DNA of 64,000 nt from an uncultured Clostridia bacterium (GCA_944387445.1 CALXEX010000003.1:24538-88537), one strand, 5' to 3'. Shown: positions 2,316 to 50,818, numbered from the stretch's first letter. Notes: generated from the sequence alone by a model not told the origin. Made by a program: numbers and translations.

Positions 2316-3956
2316 ATGAAAATACAATACAAAGATAAAGTGATGGAAATAGATAAACCAATGACAATTAGTGAATTGTTAAAGGAAGAAATCGAAAATA
2401 GTGAATATACAGTAGTAGCTGGTATTTTTAATAATGAATATAAAAATTTAGAATCTATTATAGAAGAAGATGGGAAAATAGAATTAATTGATATTTCTTC
2501 AAAAGAAGGAATGAAGGTTTATAGAAGAACATTAATATATATCGTAGGAAAAGCATTTGAAAACATATGTCCTAACAAAAAAATGGAAGTGAATTATCAA
2601 TTATCTAATTCAATGTTTTGTGATTTAATAGATGAAGAAGTAACAGATGAATTTTTAGAAGAATTAGCACAAGAGGTTAGAAGAATCGTAAAAGAAGATT
2701 TGCCTATCAGACAAGTGATTATGAATCGAGAGGAAGCAACAAAATTTTTTAATGAAACAGAAAGCTCAAAAGGAAGATTGCAATTAGATTTAGAAGATAA
2801 TAATGAAATCTTTATGTATTACTGTGAAGACTATTATAACTATTGTTATGGAACATTAGCTAATCGAACAGGTATTACAAAAATATTTGAAATTGTAAAA
2901 TATAATGATGGATTTTTGGTAAGATATCCAAGTCAAAGTGACCCAGAGAGAATGCCAAAATTCGTAAAGAATAAAAAAATAGCATGGGCTATGGAAGAAT
3001 ATGATGATATCAATAAAATTTTAAATATCGATAGAGTATATAGAATTAATCAAGCGATAGAGGAAGGAACTGTTAAAGATATTATTTTATTGGCAGAAGC
3101 TTTACATGAAAAGAAAATAGCGAAAATTGCAGATAATATAGCCAAAAACAAAAATATAAAAATGGTATTGATTGCAGGTCCATCATCATCAGGAAAAACA
3201 ACTTTTGCACAAAGATTAGGAATTCAGTTAAAGCTAAATAGAATTAAACCAGTAACTATCTCAGTAGACAATTATTTTGTAGAAAGAAAAGACACGCCAA
3301 GAGATGAAAATGGAGAATATGATTTTGAATGTTTAGAAGCAATCGATTTAGAATTATTTAATGACCATTTAACAAGATTGTTAAATGGCGAAGAAGTAGA
3401 GATGCCACAATTTGATTTCCTTGTAGGGACGAAAAGATATAATGGAAAAAAATTAAAGTTAGAAGAAGATGAAGTATTAGTTATAGAGGGAATCCACTGC
3501 TTGAATGATAAATTAACAAGTAAAATATCAGCAGAACAAAAATATAAAGTATATATTAGTGCATTAACTGTATTAAATTTAGACAGATTTAATAGAATAT
3601 CTACAACAGATACCAGATTAATTAGAAGAATTGTAAGAGATTATCAATTTAGAGGATATTCAGCCAAAAATACAATTGCAACATGGAATAAAGTAAATGA
3701 GGGAGAAAAGAAAAATATATTCCCATTTCAAGAAGAATCAAACTTCATATTTAATACATCACTAGTATATGAAATAGGAGCATTAAAACCAATTATTATG
3801 CCACTACTAAAAGAAATTACCAAAGAAGATCCAGAATATGCAGAAGCATCTAGACTAATGAATATGCTAAAATATTTTGAAGAAATACCAAAAGAATTTG
3901 TACCAAACAATTCATTATTAAAAGAATTCTTAGGTGGAGGAGATTTTAAATATTAG
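2316..3956 (+). CDS. uridine kinase/phosphoribulokinase-family P-loop kinase with an N-terminal TGS/ThrRS-like domain
   Basis: P-loop IAGPSSSGKTTFAQRL and a PRK/URK-type fold; the domain arrangement is common in Clostridia. Confidence 0.6.
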   Translation: MKIQYKDKVMEIDKPMTISELLKEEIENSEYTVVAGIFNNEYKNLESIIEEDGKIELIDISSKEGMKVYRRTLIYIVGKAFENICPNKKMEVNYQLSNSMFCDLIDEEVTDEFLEELAQEVRRIVKEDLPIRQVIMNREEATKFFNETESSKGRLQLDLEDNNEIFMYYCEDYYNYCYGTLANRTGITKIFEIVKYNDGFLVRYPSQSDPERMPKFVKNKKIAWAMEEYDDINKILNIDRVYRINQAIEEGTVKDIILLAEALHEKKIAKIADNIAKNKNIKMVLIAGPSSSGKTTFAQRLGIQLKLNRIKPVTISVDNYFVERKDTPRDENGEYDFECLEAIDLELFNDHLTRLLNGEEVEMPQFDFLVGTKRYNGKKLKLEEDEVLVIEGIHCLNDKLTSKISAEQKYKVYISALTVLNLDRFNRISTTDTRLIRRIVRDYQFRGYSAKNTIATWNKVNEGEKKNIFPFQEESNFIFNTSLVYEIGALKPIIMPLLKEITKEDPEYAEASRLMNMLKYFEEIPKEFVPNNSLLKEFLGGGDFKY

Positions 3957-3964
3957 GAGAAAAG

Positions 3965-4279
3965 ATGGAAAGTAGAAAATTTACAGAAATTGATGAAGAA
4001 TTTATATGTGATAATTGTGGAAAAAAGGTTCCAAAACTAGGCTATTCTTGCAGAGATCATTGCCCATATTGTTTACATTCTAAACATGTAGACAAAAATC
4101 CAGGAGATAGACAGGAAACTTGTCATGGAGACCTAGAGCCAGTTTCTTTAGAAATTGATGGAAAAAAAGGTTATGTGATTATTTATAGATGTAAAGCATG
4201 TGGAGCAATTAGAAAAAATAAATCGGCTAAAGATGATAATATGGATTTAATTATAGATTTAAGCAGTAAACAAATATAA
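3965..4279 (+). CDS. RNHCP-domain zinc-ribbon protein
   Basis: Cys-rich with CDNCGKK..CRDHCPYC..CKACG, matching the RNHCP motif. Confidence 0.5.
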   Translation: MESRKFTEIDEEFICDNCGKKVPKLGYSCRDHCPYCLHSKHVDKNPGDRQETCHGDLEPVSLEIDGKKGYVIIYRCKACGAIRKNKSAKDDNMDLIIDLSSKQI

Positions 4280-4374
4280 AAAAGAAGGGGCAGACGTTAT
4301 ATGAACTAATTTTTTAGTTCTATCGTCTGTCCCTTTTGTTTCATTTTGAAACGATTTGGCACGTTCCTAACGTT

Positions 4375-6831
4375 TCAGATTTCTTTATTTAAATTTCCAT
4401 TTGTATAATGGCTACCGTCAAATCTTTGATTATTATGTACTCTATGAATAATTTCATTGATTTCTTCAATTGTCTCATCTAAAACATCAATTCTTGCATA
4501 ATCAATATTAAACTCTTTTGGATAGATAGATGTTATTTTACTATTAAAGATGGTTGTAACTGTTTGTATATTATCAGGTAAAATTCTAAATTTCATATGT
4601 AAACGGTCTTTTAATTCATAGATATTATCTGTAATACATCTTTGTTTACAAGTTGGATAACATTTATCGGTTTCACCCAAAAGGCAATAATTCATATTTA
4701 ACAATGGGGTTCTACCATAAACGATTATTTCATTTGGTAAATCTGTGCAATCACATAAATTATGAATAATTTCTCTATTTAATTCAGGAGATATGGTATA
4801 TCGGCAAATTCCCAAATTTTTTAATTCTTTTATCGTATTGGAATTATACACATTAAAGGTATAATTGGTGATTAATTCTAAGTGTTTATTTAAATCTGCA
4901 AAAAGTGTATGTAATAATTTTATATTACAGATATTTGAAATGACAAATCCTTTAATATGGTAATTGTTTAAAGTGTTTTCTATATTGTTAGATAATAGAT
5001 TTTTGTAATTGGATTTTATAATAGTTGGCATATAGATATATACATGAAAGTTATTATCTAAAACATGTAAAATTTCTTGATAGTCTTTTATAGAAAAATA
5101 TTTTAAAGGAATATATACATTTTCAATATCATGTAGTTGCGAATAATCAAAATCTTTATGCAAAATGTTTAATAGAAGAGATAATTTTGTCTTTTTTATA
5201 GGATGGCTTTGCATATCAAGTTGTTCTTTTTCAATTCTAATAATGTCTTTATCTGTAGAGGAGTTTTTATCTATATTAGAAGCGTTTCTTTTAATTGTTT
5301 TAATAACATATTGTTCCACCATTTGTAAAATGGTTCTTCTTAAATCATTTAAGGTACTTAATTTAGGAATAAATAATTTATCATCAAGTTCTATTTCTAA
5401 ATTTTTAAAAGCATAAGGGGTAGATGCTGTTTTAGAAAATTGAGAAATGATGGTATTTTTATCCATTGGCCTTGTTTTTGCTTTTAAAGGAATGACATCA
5501 CTTGTATATTGTATGTTTAAATCTTTATATAATTCGATGTTACTAGCAGATGTAACTGTAATAGAAATTGGTTTATGTTCTTTCATAGTAATATGACAAT
5601 TTAGAAGTATTTTCCTATTTTCTTTTGAGCAACTATTTTGTGCCAAAAGATTTAATTTTTTAGAACTCATTTTGTAAATTTGATTTCCTAATTTAATGTT
5701 TCCTTTCATTCTACCAATGACAACTGTTTGACCAATTTCAGTAAATTTAATGTTTTTCATATTGGTATCCATTAATTCTGAAATGGTATAAGTACCTTGT
5801 TCTTTTTCTAAAGAAATGGTATCACCAATACCAATTGGTTCATTTAATTTAACCGTAATATATCCTTTTTTGGCATTATATTTCTGAACTTTACCTAGAA
5901 ATAATCCCATATTATTTGGTTTTTCTTTAAATACCAAATTACGGTTAGCCTCATTGCTTAAATGTCCAGAAGAAGACATACCTCTATTAAACACTTGTAG
6001 CAATTCTTTTTTATCATCTTCATCTATTACATAGTCATTATCAGATAAAGCTAAATCTATATATTTTCGATAAATTCTTGTTACAGTTGCTACATACTCA
6101 GGGGACTTCATACGTCCTTCTATTTTAAAAGACTTTACACCAGCTTCAATTAGATTTGGAATATATTCTAATCCACATAAATCTCGAGTGCTTAATAAAT
6201 ATCCAGAGTTAATGGTTTTATTATTTTCCAATAATTCAAATGGAAGTCTACAAGGACCTGCACATTTTCCTCTGTTTCCAGAACGTCCACCTAACATACT
6301 AGAAAATAGACATTGACCAGAATAAGAGATACAAAGAGCTCCATGGATAAAGGTTTCTATTTCAATATTTGTATTTTTACAAATATAGGCAATTTCATTA
6401 ACAGAAAGCTCTCTTGCTAAAACGACTCTTTTAAAGCCAAGTTCTTGTAATTCTAAGGCTCCATTTAGGTTATGGACAGTCATTTGTGTACTGGCATGAA
6501 TTGGCAAATCAGGAAAAGCACTCATTAATGCCATAGCCAATCCTAAATCTTGAACAATAATCGCATCAATCCCAAATTCATAAGCTTTTTTTGCGACATT
6601 CATGGCAGATTCAAATTCTGTATCTGTTACCAATGTGTTTAATGTTAGATGGGTTTTGACACCACGAATTTTTGCATATTGAATGGCTTTTTCTAAATCG
6701 TTAAGAGAAAAATTCGTAGCAAAAGCTCTCGCACTGAAAGTATCGCTACCGAAATAGACGCTGTTAGCACCATTTTGAACACCAGCTTTTAAACATTCAA
6801 AATCACCAACAGGAGAAAGTAGTTCAACCAT
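4375..6831 (-). CDS. peptidase U32 family protein (collagenase-like, long form)
   Basis: N-terminal U32 signature region (ELLSPVGD...SVYFG...ARAF) in an 818-aa protein; TGA stop. Confidence 0.8.
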   Translation of the reverse strand: MVELLSPVGDFECLKAGVQNGANSVYFGSDTFSARAFATNFSLNDLEKAIQYAKIRGVKTHLTLNTLVTDTEFESAMNVAKKAYEFGIDAIIVQDLGLAMALMSAFPDLPIHASTQMTVHNLNGALELQELGFKRVVLARELSVNEIAYICKNTNIEIETFIHGALCISYSGQCLFSSMLGGRSGNRGKCAGPCRLPFELLENNKTINSGYLLSTRDLCGLEYIPNLIEAGVKSFKIEGRMKSPEYVATVTRIYRKYIDLALSDNDYVIDEDDKKELLQVFNRGMSSSGHLSNEANRNLVFKEKPNNMGLFLGKVQKYNAKKGYITVKLNEPIGIGDTISLEKEQGTYTISELMDTNMKNIKFTEIGQTVVIGRMKGNIKLGNQIYKMSSKKLNLLAQNSCSKENRKILLNCHITMKEHKPISITVTSASNIELYKDLNIQYTSDVIPLKAKTRPMDKNTIISQFSKTASTPYAFKNLEIELDDKLFIPKLSTLNDLRRTILQMVEQYVIKTIKRNASNIDKNSSTDKDIIRIEKEQLDMQSHPIKKTKLSLLLNILHKDFDYSQLHDIENVYIPLKYFSIKDYQEILHVLDNNFHVYIYMPTIIKSNYKNLLSNNIENTLNNYHIKGFVISNICNIKLLHTLFADLNKHLELITNYTFNVYNSNTIKELKNLGICRYTISPELNREIIHNLCDCTDLPNEIIVYGRTPLLNMNYCLLGETDKCYPTCKQRCITDNIYELKDRLHMKFRILPDNIQTVTTIFNSKITSIYPKEFNIDYARIDVLDETIEEINEIIHRVHNNQRFDGSHYTNGNLNKEI

Positions 6832-7192
6832 AATTTCACCACCTTTTTCGTTTTATACTATCTATATTATTTCAAAAAATCTTTTTTAATCAATTTTACC
6901 TAATTATAACATAAAATGCCTGAAAATTCTAGGTTACATAAAGTTACAACAAAAAAGCGGGAAATATTTTATTCTATATTGTCAGATAAAATAAAATATG
7001 ATTAGAACATTTATGGATTTTTTAATATAGAAGATGTATCATCATTTTATATACAATAAACAAAAATGTGATTCAAACAGCAAAAATACCTGTAAAAATG
7101 TGATAAAAATAATAAAAAACTTTGCAAAAATGTGATTATATGGTATAATGATAATAGATAATGTATATATTATAGATGGGAAGTGTTGCCAG

Positions 7193-8491
7193 ATGAAAAG
7201 ATTTATAATGGAAAAATTAATAAAATGGAAAGATAGTAAATATAGAAAACCATTAATTCTAAAAGGTGCTAGACAAGTAGGAAAAACATATATTATAAAA
7301 CAATTTGGGGAAGAGAATTATGAAGGAATTGCTTATTTCAACTTTGACCATGATGAAGATTTGCATAATTTGTTTGTCAATACAAAAGATCCCAAAAGAA
7401 TACTAGAGCAATTAGCATTCATATATGGAAAAGCAATATTACCAGAAAAGACATTAATATTTTTTGATGAAATACAAGAATGTCCAGACGCTTTAAATAG
7501 TTTAAAATACTTTCAAGAAGAGGCAAATGAATATCATATTGTTTGTGCAGGAAGTTTGTTGGGAATAAGATTATCACATACATCCTTTCCAGTTGGAAAA
7601 GTAGAATTTATGAATATGTATCCAATGTCTTTTAGTGAGTTTTTAATTGCTGATAATTGTGAAAACTTAGTAGAGTATATGAAATCTATTACAAAAATTG
7701 AAAATATTCCAGAAATATTTTTTAATCAATTAGAGGAAAAATTAAAAGCATATTTCATTATCGGAGGAATGCCAGAAGCTGTATATTCATGGGTAAATGA
7801 AAAAAATATGGAATTAGTAAATGCCATACAAGAAAATATATTAAAAGCCTATGAAAGCGATTTTTCAAAACATACACAAAATCATGAAGCAAATAAGATT
7901 TCTTTAATATGGAATAGTATACCATCACAATTAGCAAAGGAAAATAAGAAATTTTTATATCAAACCATAAAAGAAGGAGCACGTGCAAGAGAATATGAAA
8001 GTGCGTTAAACTGGTTAAATGATGCAAATCTGATATATAAAGTATATAATGTTAGCAAGACAGATTTTCCATTAAAAGCATATCATGATTTAAGTTGTTT
8101 CAAAATCTATATGAATGATGTAGGATTACTTAGAAGAATGGCAAATTTAGATAGTAGAATTGTGATAGAAGGAGATAAATTATTTGAAGAATTTAAAGGT
8201 GCTTTTACAGAAAATTATGTATTAAATATGCTAACAATGCTTTACGAAGAAGTTCCAAATTATTTCACTTTTGATAGATATGAAATAGATTTTGTGATTC
8301 AAAATAGAAATAGAATTATACCAATAGAGGTAAAATCTAATAAATCAACTAATCATTCTAGTTTAACAAAATATAATGAAAAATTTAATAATGATATATC
8401 TATCAGATTATCAATGAATAATCTAAAAAAAGATGATAAAGTGTTAAATATACCGTTATTTTTAATTGAATATATGGAGAAATTTTTATAA
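7193..8491 (+). CDS. AAA-type ATPase with DUF4143 (archaeal-ATPase-like)
   Basis: P-loop GARQVGKTY with DEIQ Walker B and the family's C-terminal domain; start is ambiguous (7148, 7193 or 7208), and 7148 would sit over the predicted -10. Confidence 0.65.
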   Translation: MKRFIMEKLIKWKDSKYRKPLILKGARQVGKTYIIKQFGEENYEGIAYFNFDHDEDLHNLFVNTKDPKRILEQLAFIYGKAILPEKTLIFFDEIQECPDALNSLKYFQEEANEYHIVCAGSLLGIRLSHTSFPVGKVEFMNMYPMSFSEFLIADNCENLVEYMKSITKIENIPEIFFNQLEEKLKAYFIIGGMPEAVYSWVNEKNMELVNAIQENILKAYESDFSKHTQNHEANKISLIWNSIPSQLAKENKKFLYQTIKEGARAREYESALNWLNDANLIYKVYNVSKTDFPLKAYHDLSCFKIYMNDVGLLRRMANLDSRIVIEGDKLFEEFKGAFTENYVLNMLTMLYEEVPNYFTFDRYEIDFVIQNRNRIIPIEVKSNKSTNHSSLTKYNEKFNNDISIRLSMNNLKKDDKVLNIPLFLIEYMEKFL

Positions 8492-8676
8492 TTGTAGATA
8501 AAAAATAGAAAATCATGTTAGTCAATATGTGATTTTCTATCTTTTTTTGACTTTTATCAAAAGAATAAAATAAACAAAAATTTTCTTAATTTATTTCATT
8601 TTGTTCGCTTGAAATGTAAAAAAAATAGTATATAATAGAAAACATAGGAAAGAGAAAAACAAAGGAGCAAAGATAC

Positions 8677-22308: not shown

Positions 22309-22563
22309 ATGCAATTAGTAAATATTGGATTTGGAAATATTGTATCAGCAGAGAGAATTGTAGCAATTGTTAGTCCAGAATCAGCACCAATTAAAAGATT
22401 AATACAAGAAGCAAAAGATAATAAAACAGCAGTAGATGCAACATATGGAAGAAGAACAAGAGCAGTATTAATTATGGATTCAGGACATGTTATCTTATCA
22501 GCTGTACAACCAGAAACAGTTGGAGGAAGAATTGATAAAGACATTTCACAAGAAGAAAACTAG
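22309..22563 (+). CDS. remA: DUF370 / RemA-like regulatory protein
   Basis: [30 protein letters not shown] is characteristic of RemA/YlzA. Confidence 0.75.
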
Positions 22564-22680
22564 ATGATGATTTTGGGGACGGAGAAAAAAATCATCATTT
22601 GATTGATAGTTATAAAAATAGAAATAATAATTAAAATTAGAAAATGATGATTTTTTTCTCCGTCCCCAAAATCATCATTT
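22564..22680. repeat. perfect ~36-bp inverted repeat pair (each arm itself a hairpin) filling the remA-rpoZ intergenic region
   Basis: ATGATGATTTTGGGGACGGAGAAAAAAATCATCATT ... 45-nt AT-rich spacer ... its exact reverse complement. Confidence 0.8.
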
Positions 22681-22703
22681 AAAAAGAAAGGAATGAATAG
22701 AAA

Positions 22704-35009: not shown

Positions 35010-35139
35010 AAATACCCCTTTCTCATAAACTAGTATCTACCAAACTTAAAAAACTTATACATTATTATATGATAAGAAAAAAAATAAGTGAATGATAGGA
35101 AAGTGTCAAAAAAACCACATATTAACATGTGGTTTTGAT

Positions 35140-38486: not shown

Positions 38487-38605
38487 TGTAACTATTCAGT
38501 GGTAAAGATATTTGATATTAAACGTTTTCTTGTATATTTATTTTTTATGAAAAATAAATATACAAGAAAACGTAATTAGAAATTTTATACCACTGAATAG
38601 TTACA
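38487..38605. repeat. 119-nt two-tier perfect hairpin/palindrome between the NUDIX gene and the lexA promoter
   Basis: Outer arms TGTAACTATTCAGTGGTA / TACCACTGAATAGTTACA; inner 25-bp perfect arms AACGTTTTCTTGTATATTTATTTTT / reverse complement. Confidence 0.8.
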
Positions 38606-47084: not shown

Positions 47085-47326
47085 AAAATAACTCCTTTCA
47101 TTATAAATTTGTATAAAAGTTCATTTATTATGTATCTCTATAATTTAGTATACAAATAAAAGAGGAAATATGCAATATGTAATTTAAATTCTTAAAATAT
47201 ATTAAAGTTTCTTGAAATTTTATAGAAAGTATGTCATATTAAATAAAGACAAAATGTAAAGTAAAATGATAAAAATGTCCTAAACAGAAACGTCCCCAAT
47301 GGGACATAAAAGGAGGAGATATTTTA

Positions 47327-48131: not shown

Positions 48132-49859
48132 ATGAGAAGAGGAAAAAGAGAATTAGGAAAAGAACCAAAAACAATATCGTATGGAGAAACAGAAAAAAAG
48201 AAAAAAATTATCATTGCAACAGGAATAATTATCATAACAATGATTATATTATTTATCATAGCGATGATAGCAAATAATTATATTATTTTAGATAATAATA
48301 CAACAACAAATTTAATCATTAATAATACAAATGTAACGTCAAATTTAAAAAATGAAATTATCCAAGAAGATGGTGTTATTTATTTATCAGAAGACGATAT
48401 TGCCAATTTCTTTGATAAACATATTTATTTAGAAGAAGAGAATCAAAAAATTATTACAACGTATGATAAAAAAATAGCAGAAGTGAGTTTAGATGAAGAT
48501 GTAATCAATATCAATGGAGCAGATAAAAATATATCTGCACATGCTGTTGAAAGAGATGGTACTGTTTATATACCAATTTCAGAAATGACAGAAGTATATG
48601 ATATAGAGATTGATAATATTGAGAATACAAACATAATTACAATGGATTCACTAGATAGAGGACAGAATAAAGCGGTTGTCACATCTACTGTATCTGTAAA
48701 ATCTTCAACCAATTTTATAGCAAGAACAGTTGATAGAATAGAAAAAGGAGAAACGGTTATTGTGATTTCTTCTGATGGAGGTTATTCTAAAATAAGGACT
48801 GAAAATGGGAAAATTGGATATATTAAGACCAATAAATTGGCAAATGAATATGTTGTTAGAGAAGATATGCCAGAAGAAAAGCAAATTGAAGGAAAAATCA
48901 ATATGACATGGGATTACTATTCAGAAGTGGGAAGTGCACCTGATAGATCAGGAACAACAATAGATGGTGTCAATGTTGTATCTCCAGCATTCTTCTATAT
49001 AGATGAGAATGGTATTTTTAGAGAAAATATAGGTGCTAGTGGAGAAGCGTATATTGATTGGGCACATGGTAATGGTTATAAAGTATGGCCAATGGTTTCT
49101 AATGCGCCAGCAGCAAATGAAAGCTTAGAAATCACATCAGAAATCATGAATAGTTATGAAAATAGAAAACAATTAATAGAGCAAATTGTTGAAGCATGTG
49201 TTACATATGACCTAGATGGAATTAATATAGATTTCGAAAATATGAAACAAGAAGATAAAGATGTATATTCAAGATTTATAATAGAATTAACACCAAGATT
49301 AAATGAAATGGGAATGGTTGTTTCAGTTGATGTAACAGCACCAGATGGTGGAGAAACATGGTCAATGTGTTTTGATAGAAATGTTATTGGAGATGTAGCA
49401 GATTATATTATATTTATGGCATATGACCAAAATGGTCTTTCAAGTACAAAAGCAGGAACAACAGCAGGATATAATTGGATTGCATTAAACTTAGTAAAAT
49501 TCTTACAGACAGAAGAAATAGATTCAGACAAATTAATATTGGGAATACCATTTTATACAAGATTATGGACAGAAGATTCAAATGGAGAAGTTGTAAGGAA
49601 TCCAACAGTCAATATGGAAGATATAGAAGAAGTATTGCCAGACAATGTGCAAAAAACATGGGATGATGAATTAAAACAATACTATGTAGAATATCAAGAT
49701 GGAAGTTACACTAGAAAAATGTGGATAGAAGATGTAGAATCATTAAAAGCAAAAGTTTCATTGGTTAATGAAAATAATTTAGCAGGTGTAGCATCTTGGC
49801 AATACGGAATGGAAACGGAAGATGTATGGCCAATGTTAAAAGAAGAACTTGAACAATAG
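48132..49859 (+). CDS. membrane-anchored glycoside hydrolase family 18 (YaaH/YdhD-like spore peptidoglycan hydrolase type)
   Basis: N-terminal TM helix; GH18 catalytic motif DGINIDFE. Confidence 0.7.
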   Translation: MRRGKRELGKEPKTISYGETEKKKKIIIATGIIIITMIILFIIAMIANNYIILDNNTTTNLIINNTNVTSNLKNEIIQEDGVIYLSEDDIANFFDKHIYLEEENQKIITTYDKKIAEVSLDEDVININGADKNISAHAVERDGTVYIPISEMTEVYDIEIDNIENTNIITMDSLDRGQNKAVVTSTVSVKSSTNFIARTVDRIEKGETVIVISSDGGYSKIRTENGKIGYIKTNKLANEYVVREDMPEEKQIEGKINMTWDYYSEVGSAPDRSGTTIDGVNVVSPAFFYIDENGIFRENIGASGEAYIDWAHGNGYKVWPMVSNAPAANESLEITSEIMNSYENRKQLIEQIVEACVTYDLDGINIDFENMKQEDKDVYSRFIIELTPRLNEMGMVVSVDVTAPDGGETWSMCFDRNVIGDVADYIIFMAYDQNGLSSTKAGTTAGYNWIALNLVKFLQTEEIDSDKLILGIPFYTRLWTEDSNGEVVRNPTVNMEDIEEVLPDNVQKTWDDELKQYYVEYQDGSYTRKMWIEDVESLKAKVSLVNENNLAGVASWQYGMETEDVWPMLKEELEQ

Positions 49860-50060
49860 GGACGTGCCAAATCGTTTCAAAATGAACCTAAAAGGGACAG
49901 ACCTCAAAATGGTTTGTTCCTTTTATTGTTCCTCTTAATGTGATGAAAAGGTCTGAATAAAAAGTTTTCAAAATCATATGAAAAGCATTAGAAACCCCTT
50001 GACAACAGGTTTTTCAATGGTATAATACTAGTAAAGTGACATTTGGAGGGATTTTGACGA

Positions 50061-50708
50061 ATGCAAAAAGAAAATGTATATTTTTCTGTGGACAAATTTG
50101 ATGAAATGACAGATGAGCAAATTGTATTAGAGGTACAAAAGGGAGATAAACAAGCTTTATCATATGTAATGAATAAATATAAGGAATTAGTGAATATAAA
50201 AGTTAGTAAATACTTTATGGTTGGTGCAGAAAGAGATGATATTGTTCAAGAAGGATTAATTGGATTATTTAAAGCAATTAAGATGTTTAATAAGGATAAA
50301 AATAATAGTTTCAAATCATTTGCAAATATGTGCATTGAAAGACAATTAATAACAGCTATCAAATCTTCAACAAGACAAAAACATATGCCATTAAATTCGT
50401 ATTTATCATTAAATGCTTCTGCATATGATAATGAAGAAGAAAATGGAATGGAATTAATTAATATGCTAGATAATAAAATGGTAGAAGATCCATTAGAAAC
50501 CGTGATGAAAAAAGAGTATTATGAACAAATTGAAAGTTCAATAGAAAAATCTTTAAGTACTTTTGAAAAACAAGTTTTAGATGGGTATGTAAAAGGATAT
50601 AGCTATGTGACAATTGCAAAACAATTGGATTCACCTGTAAAATCCGTAGATAATGCAATACAAAGAATTCGAAAAAAAGCAATTAAAAATATGTTAAATG
50701 AAATTTAA
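50061..50708 (+). CDS. sigH: RNA polymerase sigma-H (sporulation/stationary-phase sigma factor)
   Basis: DDIVQEGLIGLFKAIKMF...SFKSFANMCIERQLITAIK closely follows SigH. Confidence 0.8.
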   Translation: MQKENVYFSVDKFDEMTDEQIVLEVQKGDKQALSYVMNKYKELVNIKVSKYFMVGAERDDIVQEGLIGLFKAIKMFNKDKNNSFKSFANMCIERQLITAIKSSTRQKHMPLNSYLSLNASAYDNEEENGMELINMLDNKMVEDPLETVMKKEYYEQIESSIEKSLSTFEKQVLDGYVKGYSYVTIAKQLDSPVKSVDNAIQRIRKKAIKNMLNEI

Positions 50709-50742
50709 GGGAAATTGAGAATAAACTCAATTTCCCTTTTTC

Positions 50743-50818
50743 TGGGGCTTCTAACGGGAATTGAACCCGTGACCTCAGCCTTACCAAGGCTGCACTCTAC
50801 CAACTGAGCTATAGAAGC
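50743..50818 (-). tRNA. tRNA-Thr (anticodon GGT), CCA encoded
   Basis: Cloverleaf GCTTCTA acceptor, anticodon loop CTTGGTAAG, T-arm GGTTCAATTCC; 76 nt. Confidence 0.85.

Follow-up and report, generated by a model that had tools for sequence, protein, structure and literature searches.

Gene-end palindromes in a low-GC lineage of uncultured Clostridia: a probable REP/REPIN-like, TIRtron-type repeat family

Three genes in a 64-kb stretch of DNA from an uncultured Clostridia bacterium (CALXEX010000003.1:24538-88537; the whole stretch is called the window below) are followed by look-alike sequences of about 45 nucleotides (nt). These copies very likely belong to a dispersed family of palindromic repeats of the REP/REPIN-like ("TIRtron"-type) kind (REP, repetitive extragenic palindrome; TIR, terminal inverted repeat), being short non-coding derivatives of a transposase-bearing TIRtron. 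In related genomes, inverted copies of the same unit enclose a gene for a Y1 transposase, which is the defining arrangement of REPs with their REP-associated tyrosine transposases (RAYTs), the REPtron or TIRtron of Di Nocera et al. (PMC3733652). The kind is thus known, while the family itself is undescribed; because the GTAG tag is absent and the NCBI cut-off for RAYTs is not reached, it is filed under the broader REP/TIR-RAYT kind and not as a classical REP. The repeats are probably mobile and, by analogy with known systems, may be mobilised or kept up by the transposase. An original prediction from the window's sequence had noted the family as gene-3'-end repeats, and had proposed a conserved element of the 3' untranslated region (3'-UTR), a terminator module, or a binding site for a protein or a small RNA (sRNA).

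The repeat unit and its copies in the window

The GC content of the window is about 28%, and GC-rich words such as GGGACG are therefore rare in it. The three look-alike sequences are all present after genes, at the positions originally given, and they form a genuine family: a 16-nt core finds six matches at three or fewer mismatches, against 1.3 expected, and none of 100 shuffles reaches six. Domain checks uphold the names of the upstream genes (U32, GH18 and CTP_transf_like). A covariance model of the unit, R1, was built from related genomes and run on the window; the main features are as follows.

4324..4368, minus strand: copy 1, a complete 45-nt unit, matched by R1 over its full length (65.3 bits, E 1.2e-18)
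4369..4377, minus strand: left extension of copy 1, TGAAACGTT, which opens with the TGA stop codon (4377-4375) of the U32 peptidase gene
4375-6831, minus strand: U32 peptidase gene, by domain check
4276..4337, minus strand: terminator-like hairpin of copy 1 (RNA fold -33.2 kcal/mol, z -5.9)
49858..49903, plus strand: copy 2, a complete 46-nt unit (R1 58.3 bits, E 1.9e-16)
49890..49930, plus strand: intrinsic-terminator-like hairpin in copy 2 (found by terminator scan, with 5 GC pairs among 15; fold -29.1 kcal/mol, z -4.1)
58142..58188, plus strand: copy 3, a diverged compact palindrome with heads outward (fold -28.8 kcal/mol, z -6.5; R1 plus strand 31.5 bits, E 5e-8, minus strand 16.5 bits)
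35086..35116, plus strand: a fourth, internally deleted remnant, GTGAATGATAGGAAAGTGTCAAAA, aligned to the related locus L073 (R1 10.5 bits, E 0.18, head and last bases only)

All 84 distinct head-hairpin-tail sequences are 45 or 46 nt long and consist of a head (GGGGACGTGYCAAAT; consensus across matches (A/G)GGGACGTG(C/T)CAAAT), a 7-bp stem with a 3-nt loop, and a tail (AAAAGGGACAGACC). Head and tail are conserved as unpaired sequence, while the stem occurs as CGTTTCA/TGAAACG, CGTTCAA/TTGAACG, CGTTCCA/TGGAACG, TGGACAT/TTGTCCA or TTGGACAA/TTGTCCAA. In a covariation test on 60 distinct 45-mers, whose 3' partners were shuffled 500 times, 84% of the hairpin cells were paired, versus 69.7 ± 1.3% after shuffling (0 of 500 shuffles reached 84%), and changes on both sides of the stem were found in 66 cells against 32.5 expected, counts that are inflated by the relatedness of the copies. 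Sliding the partner by one to three columns brought pairing down to 20-42%. The stem thus covaries, and the small hairpin is a real, maintained feature despite the kinship of the copies. In the form originally drawn, GTTTCA-AAA-TGAAAC, it is perfect in copy 1 alone; it is imperfect in copy 2 (TGAACC) and compensated in copy 3 (GTTCAA/TTGAAC).

Copy 1 is made up of the head AGGAACGTGCCAAAT, the hairpin CGTTTCA (4353-4347)/AAA/TGAAAC (4343-4338) and the tail AAAAGGGACAGACG. An extension like the one before it (TGAAACGTTA or TGAACGATA) precedes most units in related genomes. As to a possible variant-specific helix between this extension and the 5' arm of the hairpin, exact 5-mer complementarity is found 51 times against 25.5 ± 4.2, but over the whole 9-bp helix the signal is weak, 62.3% of positions being paired versus 60.4 ± 0.9% with shuffled partners. 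Copy 2 consists of the head AGGGACGTGCCAAAT, the imperfect hairpin CGTTTCA (49873-49879)/AAA/TGAACC and the tail AAAAGGGACAGACC; the TAG stop codon of the GH18 gene (49857-49859) overlaps its first bases, and its extension, TGAACAAT, lies at 49850-49857. The copies had been described as starting 0-9 nt after the stop codon: the position at the gene end stands, but the conserved element begins up to 9 nt farther upstream and takes in the stop codons of copies 1 and 2. Copy 3 is diverged, as had been said, but it is not a truncated copy; it has the other form of the element, in which two heads have one hairpin in common, here a 47-nt palindrome with the left arm GAGGACGTGTCAAACTGTTCAA, the loop AAA and the right arm TTGAACAAATTGATACGTCCTT. 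It lies between convergent genes and begins 10 nt past the TAA (58130-58132) of the cytidylyltransferase-like gene. The remnant at 35086-35116 retains the extension and a mutated head, without hairpin and tail, at a site where the syntenic locus L073 has a complete unit.

In copies 1 and 2 the tail of the unit doubles as the 5' arm of a larger, terminator-like hairpin, and the segment AAAAGGGACAGAC of the earlier description corresponds to this arm with its A-tract. In copy 1, the A-tract (4337-4334) is followed by the 5' arm GGGACAGACG (4333-4324), a 27-nt loop with a small stem of its own, the 3' arm CGTCTGCCCC (4296-4287) and a T-rich tail (4286-4276). This 10-bp stem with TTCTTTTTT is seen in the fold only, and was missed by a simple terminator scan because its loop is longer than 8 nt. 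Position 4279 is the end of a convergent RNHCP-domain gene on the plus strand, where TTTTGTTTCATTTTG comes after the stem, so that the hairpin could terminate transcription both ways. In copy 2, an A-tract, the 5' arm GGGACAGACC (49894-49903), the loop TCAAAAT and the 3' arm GGTTTGTTCC (49911-49920, with G-U pairs) are followed by TTTTATTGTT; farther 3' lies a 12/12 promoter-like match (49999-50026), ahead of a gene for a sigma-70-family factor. The proposed terminator module is therefore borne out as a shape in the tail hairpins, by scan in copy 2 and by fold in copy 1, but not in copy 3, whose palindrome is followed by no T-run and where the terminator scan found nothing.

A further R1 match, at 11984-12033, falls within a conserved coding region and was set aside as a chance match. 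At the gathering threshold, Rfam finds only a tRNA in the 64-kb window, and permissive Rfam scans, run on copies 1 and 2 as well as on a composite element, return sub-threshold noise from generic, miRNA-like hairpins.

Related genomes and the transposase gene

The genome-wide motif search proposed with the original prediction shows a family that reaches well beyond the window. A scan with ACGTGYCAAAYYGTTNNAAAA (one genome per species, exact pattern, 8-kb blocks) gave, among the matches listed, at least 116 blocks with the motif, 103 of them low in GC and derived from 24 assemblies labelled uncultured Clostridia, Eubacteriales or Bacillota; the 13 listed blocks of higher GC (0.38-0.63) were dropped as chance matches on their GC content. 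A relaxed head search then counted 177 heads in 851 kb of DNA from these 24 assemblies and the window, the loci having been chosen by an exact motif match, on which all counts are conditional. The richest assembly has at least 20 heads among the matches listed, compared with three loci and one remnant in the window. Synteny with the window is seen in nine blocks, whose nucleotide identity to it is 84-92%; this places the window in a member of this Clostridia group. Plasmid and phage collections queried with a 102-nt perfect pair gave no match; a motif scan of viral contigs returned four identical matches without head or tail context, which were rejected as chance.

The link to a transposase comes from these relatives. 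At locus L012, two inverted units 1.2 kb apart enclose a single open reading frame (4164-4919) of 251 amino acids, whose product matches Pfam Y1_Tnp (36.2 bits, cut-off 23) and carries a C-terminal helix-turn-helix (HTH) domain (HTH_11, residues 216-249, 28.5 bits, cut-off 25). Its top NCBIfam family is REP_Tyr_transpos (E 5e-17), at 62.2 bits and thus below the curated cut-off of 80. Across 19 homologues, the HxH motif (H60-A-H62), the Y---NP motif (Y120-IFNNP) and S140 are invariant. A profile of these 19 sequences has one significant match in the PDB, 4ER8, the E. coli TnpA-REP with a bound REP hairpin, whereas phmmer with a single transposase sequence finds no match there. An AlphaFold model (mean pLDDT 78) likewise has 4ER8 as its top fold match (E 3.7e-5, target TM 0.64), followed by the IS608 and ISDra2 transposases (2A6O, 2XMA and others).

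Three copies of the gene occur in the 851 kb of loci (L012, L068 and L099). Two of them lie between ileS and an ABC ATPase gene, and the third, in L068, is beside the end of ileS with its other side cut by the edge of the locus; homologues at 77%, 72% and 51% identity also lie, each, between ileS and the same ABC ATPase gene. Inverted units are found on both flanks of the gene in L012, L099, L117, L119 and L121, and on the one readable flank in L068. Head and tail of these flanking units are conserved, while the hairpin differs in L119 (TGGACA/TGTCCA) and L121 (TTGGACAA/TTGTCCAA), and in two of three testable genomes (L068 and L099) the flanking units carry the dominant stem of their host. The Y1 gene is the only coding sequence seen between inverted pairs, joined in L099 by one reverse-strand frame. 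What had been proposed as a protein-binding site accordingly survives as a putative recognition hairpin, but its most likely binding protein, judging from the related enzymes, would be a single-strand DNA transposase. Most contigs with homologues of the transposase are about 1-3 kb long, as expected if flanking repeats break metagenome assemblies.

Arrangement, placement and turnover of the units

The compact palindrome, with two heads and one hairpin, accounts for 54 of the 177 heads, copy 3 of the window being a diverged case; 111 heads fit the head-hairpin-tail form at three mismatches, and 12 fit neither. The pair tally covers 115 head-hairpin-tail units. In it, 37 units stand in complete head-outward inverted pairs with 8-263 nt between their tails, 15 are closed by a degenerate inverted tail and then a T-rich stretch (the type of copies 1 and 2), 8 are closed otherwise, 52 are solo and 3 are too near a locus edge to be classed. 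Near-perfect palindromes of 100 nt are found in L090 and L094. The tail is preceded by AAAA and the inverted tail is followed by TTTT, so that tail, loop and inverted tail read as an A-tract, a GC-rich 10-bp stem and a T-tract; by its sequence, this inner part resembles a two-way intrinsic terminator and may act as one. Copies 1 and 2 of the window are old, half-decayed pairs, in which the distal head has decayed and the terminator-like part has been kept.

The space between the tails may itself hold a recurrent sequence: a "cargo" of about 200 nt, in both orientations, lies there in L084 (2190-2456), L018, L019, L043, L075, L098, L104 and L107. The cargo is bounded by inverted ends of its own (CGATTTTGTATAAGCTAAATTT / CGATTTTGCGTATCTAAATTT), and T-runs come after its central hairpin on both strands; it matches no Rfam family and may represent either another mobile element, nested in the pair, or a gene for a small RNA.

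The placement of the heads was classed with gene ends taken from open frames of at least 80 codons, without a gene finder:

98 of 177 heads: a same-strand upstream frame stops 2-15 nt before GGGACG
9 of 177: a frame closes within the unit
13 of 177: the head adjoins the ribosome-binding site and start of a divergent gene
12 of 177: a gene end lies 16-200 nt upstream
1 of 177: a nearby stop plus a divergent start
44 of 177: other placement

A stop codon 2-15 nt upstream is thus found for 55% of the heads, versus 1.3% of positions picked at random and 2.7% when only positions outside long frames are drawn. The original prediction had named a random position relative to gene ends as what would speak against it; position at gene 3' ends in a fixed orientation is what is seen. 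The stop offsets peak at -2, which is the TAG of TAGGGACG (42 cases), and again at -9 to -11, the TGA of TGAAACGTTA or TGAACGATA (39 cases); in the window, the GH18 gene ends on the former, in the head, and the U32 gene on the latter, in the extension. The TGA and TAG of extension plus head close two frames and a TGA in the 3' arm of the hairpin closes the third, and the element would therefore end translation quickly in any frame. This placement may reflect tolerance or selection, with harmless insertions surviving, rather than targeting.

One unit, in L110 (6215-6326), begins right after the last base of a tRNA gene (…CCCCA|TAGGGACG). At the same tRNA site in the window (50707-50743), in L076 and in L107, other terminator-like hairpins are found, those of L076 and L107 being a GGGGACGGAC-type repeat. 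The corresponding gene in the window is:

50746-50818, minus strand: tRNA

Stem variants are genome-specific: in three assemblies, the dominant stem is GTTCCA in 15 of 20 heads, GTTCAA in 13 of 17 and GTTTCA in 10 of 13. At the site of copy 2, four genomes have four stem variants, fully paired by compensation in L076, L016 and L110 and imperfect in the window. At the site of copy 1, the unit with its terminator in the window is matched by a compact palindrome in L033 and by a 330-nt composite pair in L018 and L084. Sixteen filled positions, which we estimate to represent about eight independent loci, have a unit-free orthologue with flanks 85-97% identical. No clean empty site was found for the loci of the window: the site matched in L073 is a deletion remnant, and the sites in L110 and L075 hold other hairpins, so that exact insertion junctions cannot be defined there. 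Across sites, the boundary of the unit lies 0 to about 9 nt upstream of GGGACG. No direct duplication is visible where filled and empty sites are compared or at the flanks of the inspected pairs, and a look for polymorphism among strains at copy 2 gave the same gene spacing after GH18 in all six contigs with an identical GH18 protein. These data describe an old family that is inherited for the most part, while units are slowly gained, lost and remodelled internally; REPIN populations have been described in similar terms (10.1101/2021.07.10.451892).

Several single sites add to this picture of changing gene ends. Around 6820-6860 (plus strand) of L009, two extension arms, GGAACGTTAG-AAAATATT-CTAACGTTTC, stand without head, hairpin and tail where L041 has a complete unit, and may be an excision footprint; the idea that such arms are a common free-standing target hairpin was dropped, L009 being the one real case among 416 free extension motifs. 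Beside a unit in L016 (about 2990-3000), a synonymous leucine change from CTT to TTG gives TGGAAC, the local stem variant, and beside one in L096 (about 3850) the stop codon has changed from TAA to TGA, giving TGAAC, again the local stem variant. Taken over all units, covariation between flank and stem gives a weak signal (the 62.3% versus 60.4 ± 0.9% above). At 38487-38605, the window has an intergenic nested palindrome (outer arms of 18 nt and inner arms of 24 nt, both 100% complementary) where the syntenic L075 has a 350-nt composite unit pair, i.e., different palindromic fillers in two genomes.

Other repeats and segments lie nearby. A second small family, ATGTCC..GGGGACGTTTCTGTTTGGGACAT, is present in the window at 13499-13537 (plus strand) and 47269-47307 (minus strand) and counts 13 copies in 11 sequences (10 related loci and the window); it has the word GGGGACG in common with the main family and sometimes adjoins the tail of a main unit (L064 and L079). 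A palindrome at 22561-22681, with 40-nt arms that are 98% complementary, contains GGGGACGGAG and lies just upstream of a small gene starting at about 22705. Of the 17 matches to the shared word TTTGGGGACGGAG, which occur in 10 sequences including the window, most belong to a related terminator-like repeat, AAAAAGGGATTTTGGGGACGGACTCATTTTTCCCTTTTT. Finally, a 1.6-kb segment of the window (6973-8592) encoding an ATPase with AAA_14 and DUF4143 domains (open reading frame 7148-8491) is absent from the collinear loci L018, L033 and L084 and, from this comparison, is probably an insertion or a lineage-specific gene.

Known systems and competing explanations

The family resembles the REP/REPIN-RAYT systems of E. 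coli, Pseudomonas and Stenotrophomonas (PMC3116915, PMC5581495, PDB 4ER8) in its many short extragenic palindromic units, in the frequent head-outward inverted pairs that, as in REPINs, can fold into long hairpins, in its apparently single Y1/HUH gene with inverted units on the flanks, kept at one syntenic site (which suggests vertical inheritance), in its genome-specific "master" variants, and in its location after genes and between convergent genes. In contrast to REPs, where the REP itself is the palindrome, the 45-46 nt unit is longer and combines a head, a short hairpin and a tail; the enzyme has about 110 additional C-terminal residues, including the HTH, and stays below the NCBI cut-off for RAYTs; and the host is a low-GC lineage of uncultured Clostridia, unlike the hosts of the surveyed REP families, which belong to other phyla. 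Di Nocera et al. distinguished GTAG- and CGTC-tagged REP super-families across eight phyla, Firmicutes not being mentioned (PMC3733652). In the CGTC-tagged REPs, the tag is next to an 8-9-bp stem with a 4-5-nt loop and a CCA tail, whereas the CGTC found here (CACGTCCCC, reverse strand) is separated by about 8 nt from a stem of 6-7 bp, and the CCA tail is absent. Group 1 RAYTs are known to occur in Clostridia too (Bertels et al., PMC5581495).

The family also resembles the TIRtrons and their TIRYT genes, which are RAYT-like genes with long inverted repeats; many of these repeats carry GGGGWSAS, and some form moderately abundant dispersed families (Di Nocera et al., PMC3733652). Here also, a RAYT-like gene has long inverted repeats in place of classical REPs, and, as for the TIRs of some species, the family is dispersed, moderately abundant and organised as dimers. 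With the TIR motif GGGG[AT][CG]A[CG], the tail (A/G)GGGACAG reads as AGGGACAG in most units (7 of 8 positions) and as GGGGACAG in a few (e.g., L003), while the head GGGGACGT agrees at 6 of 8 positions. Most TIRYTs have been assigned to subclass 2.1 (class 2) of TnpA-Y1, whose members are long, carry an HTH at the C-terminus and conserve a serine, and no REP-like hairpins were found beside subclass 2.1 genes (Quentin et al., PMC6006769). The present enzyme has the same C-terminal HTH, Y---NP motif and serine downstream of the tyrosine helix, although its HTH is Pfam HTH_11 where that study names Bac_DnaA_C, HTH_23 and HTH_28, and, unlike subclass 2.1, its flanking repeat has a covarying hairpin and is widely spread. 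By these sequence features, the enzyme resembles subclass 2.1, and the case fits the TIRtron type.

Other systems are like the family in part. The IS200/IS605 insertion sequences (IS608 and ISDra2) have the same enzyme fold, a recognised hairpin with conserved flanks and no target duplication, but their left and right ends differ and are not inverted, they are multi-copy together with their transposase, and they insert beside a tetra- or pentanucleotide of fixed sequence; the present family has inverted copies of a single unit as its ends, and its gene does not leave its one site. Like Rho-independent terminators, the element has a GC-rich stem (about 10 bp) between an A-tract and a T-tract, and copy 2 was found by a standard scan, whereas the 5' arm is a conserved repeat sequence common to unrelated genes, and ahead of it come the conserved head and hairpin, about 30 nt for which a terminator has no need. 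The Rickettsia palindromic elements (RPEs), the Neisseria Correia/NEMIS elements and the E. coli REPs are likewise small palindromic repeats, transcribed together with the coding sequence that they adjoin or extend into, and can alter C-termini or affect translation termination and the fate of mRNAs; E. coli REPs have reportedly been found close to stop codons by Liang, Rudd and Deutscher in 2015. RPEs, however, are in-frame insertions that undergo translation, and the Correia elements belong to the DDE-type miniature inverted-repeat transposable elements (MITEs) and have a TA duplication, while the present element ends the reading frame after a few codons and is associated with a Y1 enzyme.

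The features of the family would be explained as follows. If the transposase works like IS200/IS605 TnpA and E. coli TnpA-REP, it would bind the unit's hairpin in single-stranded DNA, and cutting or rejoining next to the conserved flanks would allow head-outward pairs to spread or to be maintained. Units would end up, and survive, at the extreme ends of genes, where their outer stop codons would close incoming frames, and tail, loop and inverted tail would serve as a built-in terminator shape. Any terminator activity would seem to be a side effect of this palindromic architecture, or a use that has been made of it.

A number of observations weigh against this reading. The enzyme falls short of the RAYT cut-off, and the heads begin (T/A)T(A/G)GGGACG without a conserved GTAG tag. 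The 64-kb window is without a transposase gene, and the link to its genome rests on the relatives at 84-92% nucleotide identity. About half of the units are without a perfect hairpin (e.g., the common GTTCC...GATACC variant), and the kinship of the copies overstates their independence in the covariation test. The 111 filled sites that are filled in relatives too, and the equal gene spacing after GH18 in the six contigs with an identical GH18 protein, give no sign of recent movement. The counts depend, moreover, on the exact pattern by which loci were chosen and, for placement, on gene ends read from open frames.

Some of the same observations would suit a functional RNA, that is, a 3'-UTR stabiliser, a terminator or a protein- or sRNA-binding site conserved at particular genes, to which the likeness to transposase systems would be secondary. 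The fixed orientation to the upstream gene with the head 2-15 nt from a stop in 55% of cases, the sites filled in relatives across species, the compensatory changes by which orthologous copies keep the hairpin, and the strong folds (z -4 to -6.5) all agree with it. We nevertheless consider it unlikely, as identical inverted units lie on the flanks of the transposase gene in the lineages with both flanks readable, a third of the units form symmetric pairs readable on both strands, some heads adjoin the ribosome-binding sites of divergent genes or the end of a tRNA, the carrier genes are functionally unrelated, Rfam gives no match, and the conserved head and tail are unpaired. Together with the genome-specific stems and the pairs of filled and empty sites, this speaks against the dedicated 3'-UTR or sRNA-binding RNA first proposed. 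A role at the RNA level may exist in addition, but it leaves the transposase flanks, the pairs, the heads beside gene starts and tRNAs, and the genome-specific variants unexplained.

If the head-outward pairs around 8-263 nt of variable DNA, some of it the 200-nt cargo with its own inverted ends, are emphasised instead, the units could be taken as the terminal inverted repeats, of about 45 bp (ends GGGGACGTG...CACGTCCCC), of ordinary MITEs derived from a DDE-type insertion sequence, with the Y1 gene a mere frequent neighbour. This is quite improbable, given that no direct target-site duplication is seen on the flanks of the inspected pairs, that the Y1 gene is the only coding sequence seen inside a pair (apart from the reverse-strand frame in L099), that the hairpin covaries as expected of single-strand HUH enzymes, and that the transposase gene stays at one conserved chromosomal site and does not move with the copies. 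More improbable still, to the point of being hardly credible, is a role in site-specific recombination, be it as integron attC-like sites or as another palindromic recombinase signal at cassette ends. Imperfect palindromes right after stop codons would be in keeping with it, and in our own comparison the outer GTTAGGG / CCCTAAC agrees with the attC core GTTRRRY / RYYYAAC at 6 of 7 positions; yet the copies are spread over 54 kb of housekeeping genes without a cassette array, no integrase-type gene was seen in the translated intervals between units (no search of the loci was aimed at one), the enzyme that accompanies the units is an HUH transposase, and orthologous genes with and without a unit are otherwise syntenic.

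Within the transposase-linked, REP/REPIN-like reading, which remains the preferred one, a bolder version can be put forward, although we hold it to be rather doubtful: the units would be portable "gene-end cassettes" in which a two-way terminator is surrounded, on either strand, by stop codons in all three frames, and they would be delivered to gene stop codons, or fixed there by preference, by a domesticated, HTH-bearing tyrosine transposase, and adjacent coding sequence would co-evolve with the hairpin, as hinted by the codon changes in L016 and L096. If so, subclass 2.1/TIRYT enzymes would maintain a REPIN-like population that shapes the ends of transcription units in a Gram-positive lineage.

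To our knowledge, REPIN-RAYT systems have been studied almost entirely in Proteobacteria. Two surveys of REP and TIR repeats list no families from Firmicutes or Clostridia, and a clear case is now at hand in uncultured gut Clostridia, notable for a gene fixed at one syntenic site, for a flanking hairpin that changes with the lineage of the enzyme, and for repeats that define many gene ends. These repeats probably break metagenome assemblies, many transposase contigs being no longer than about 1 kb, and they alter the predicted C-termini of proteins, so that the annotation of gene ends in this group should take them into account.

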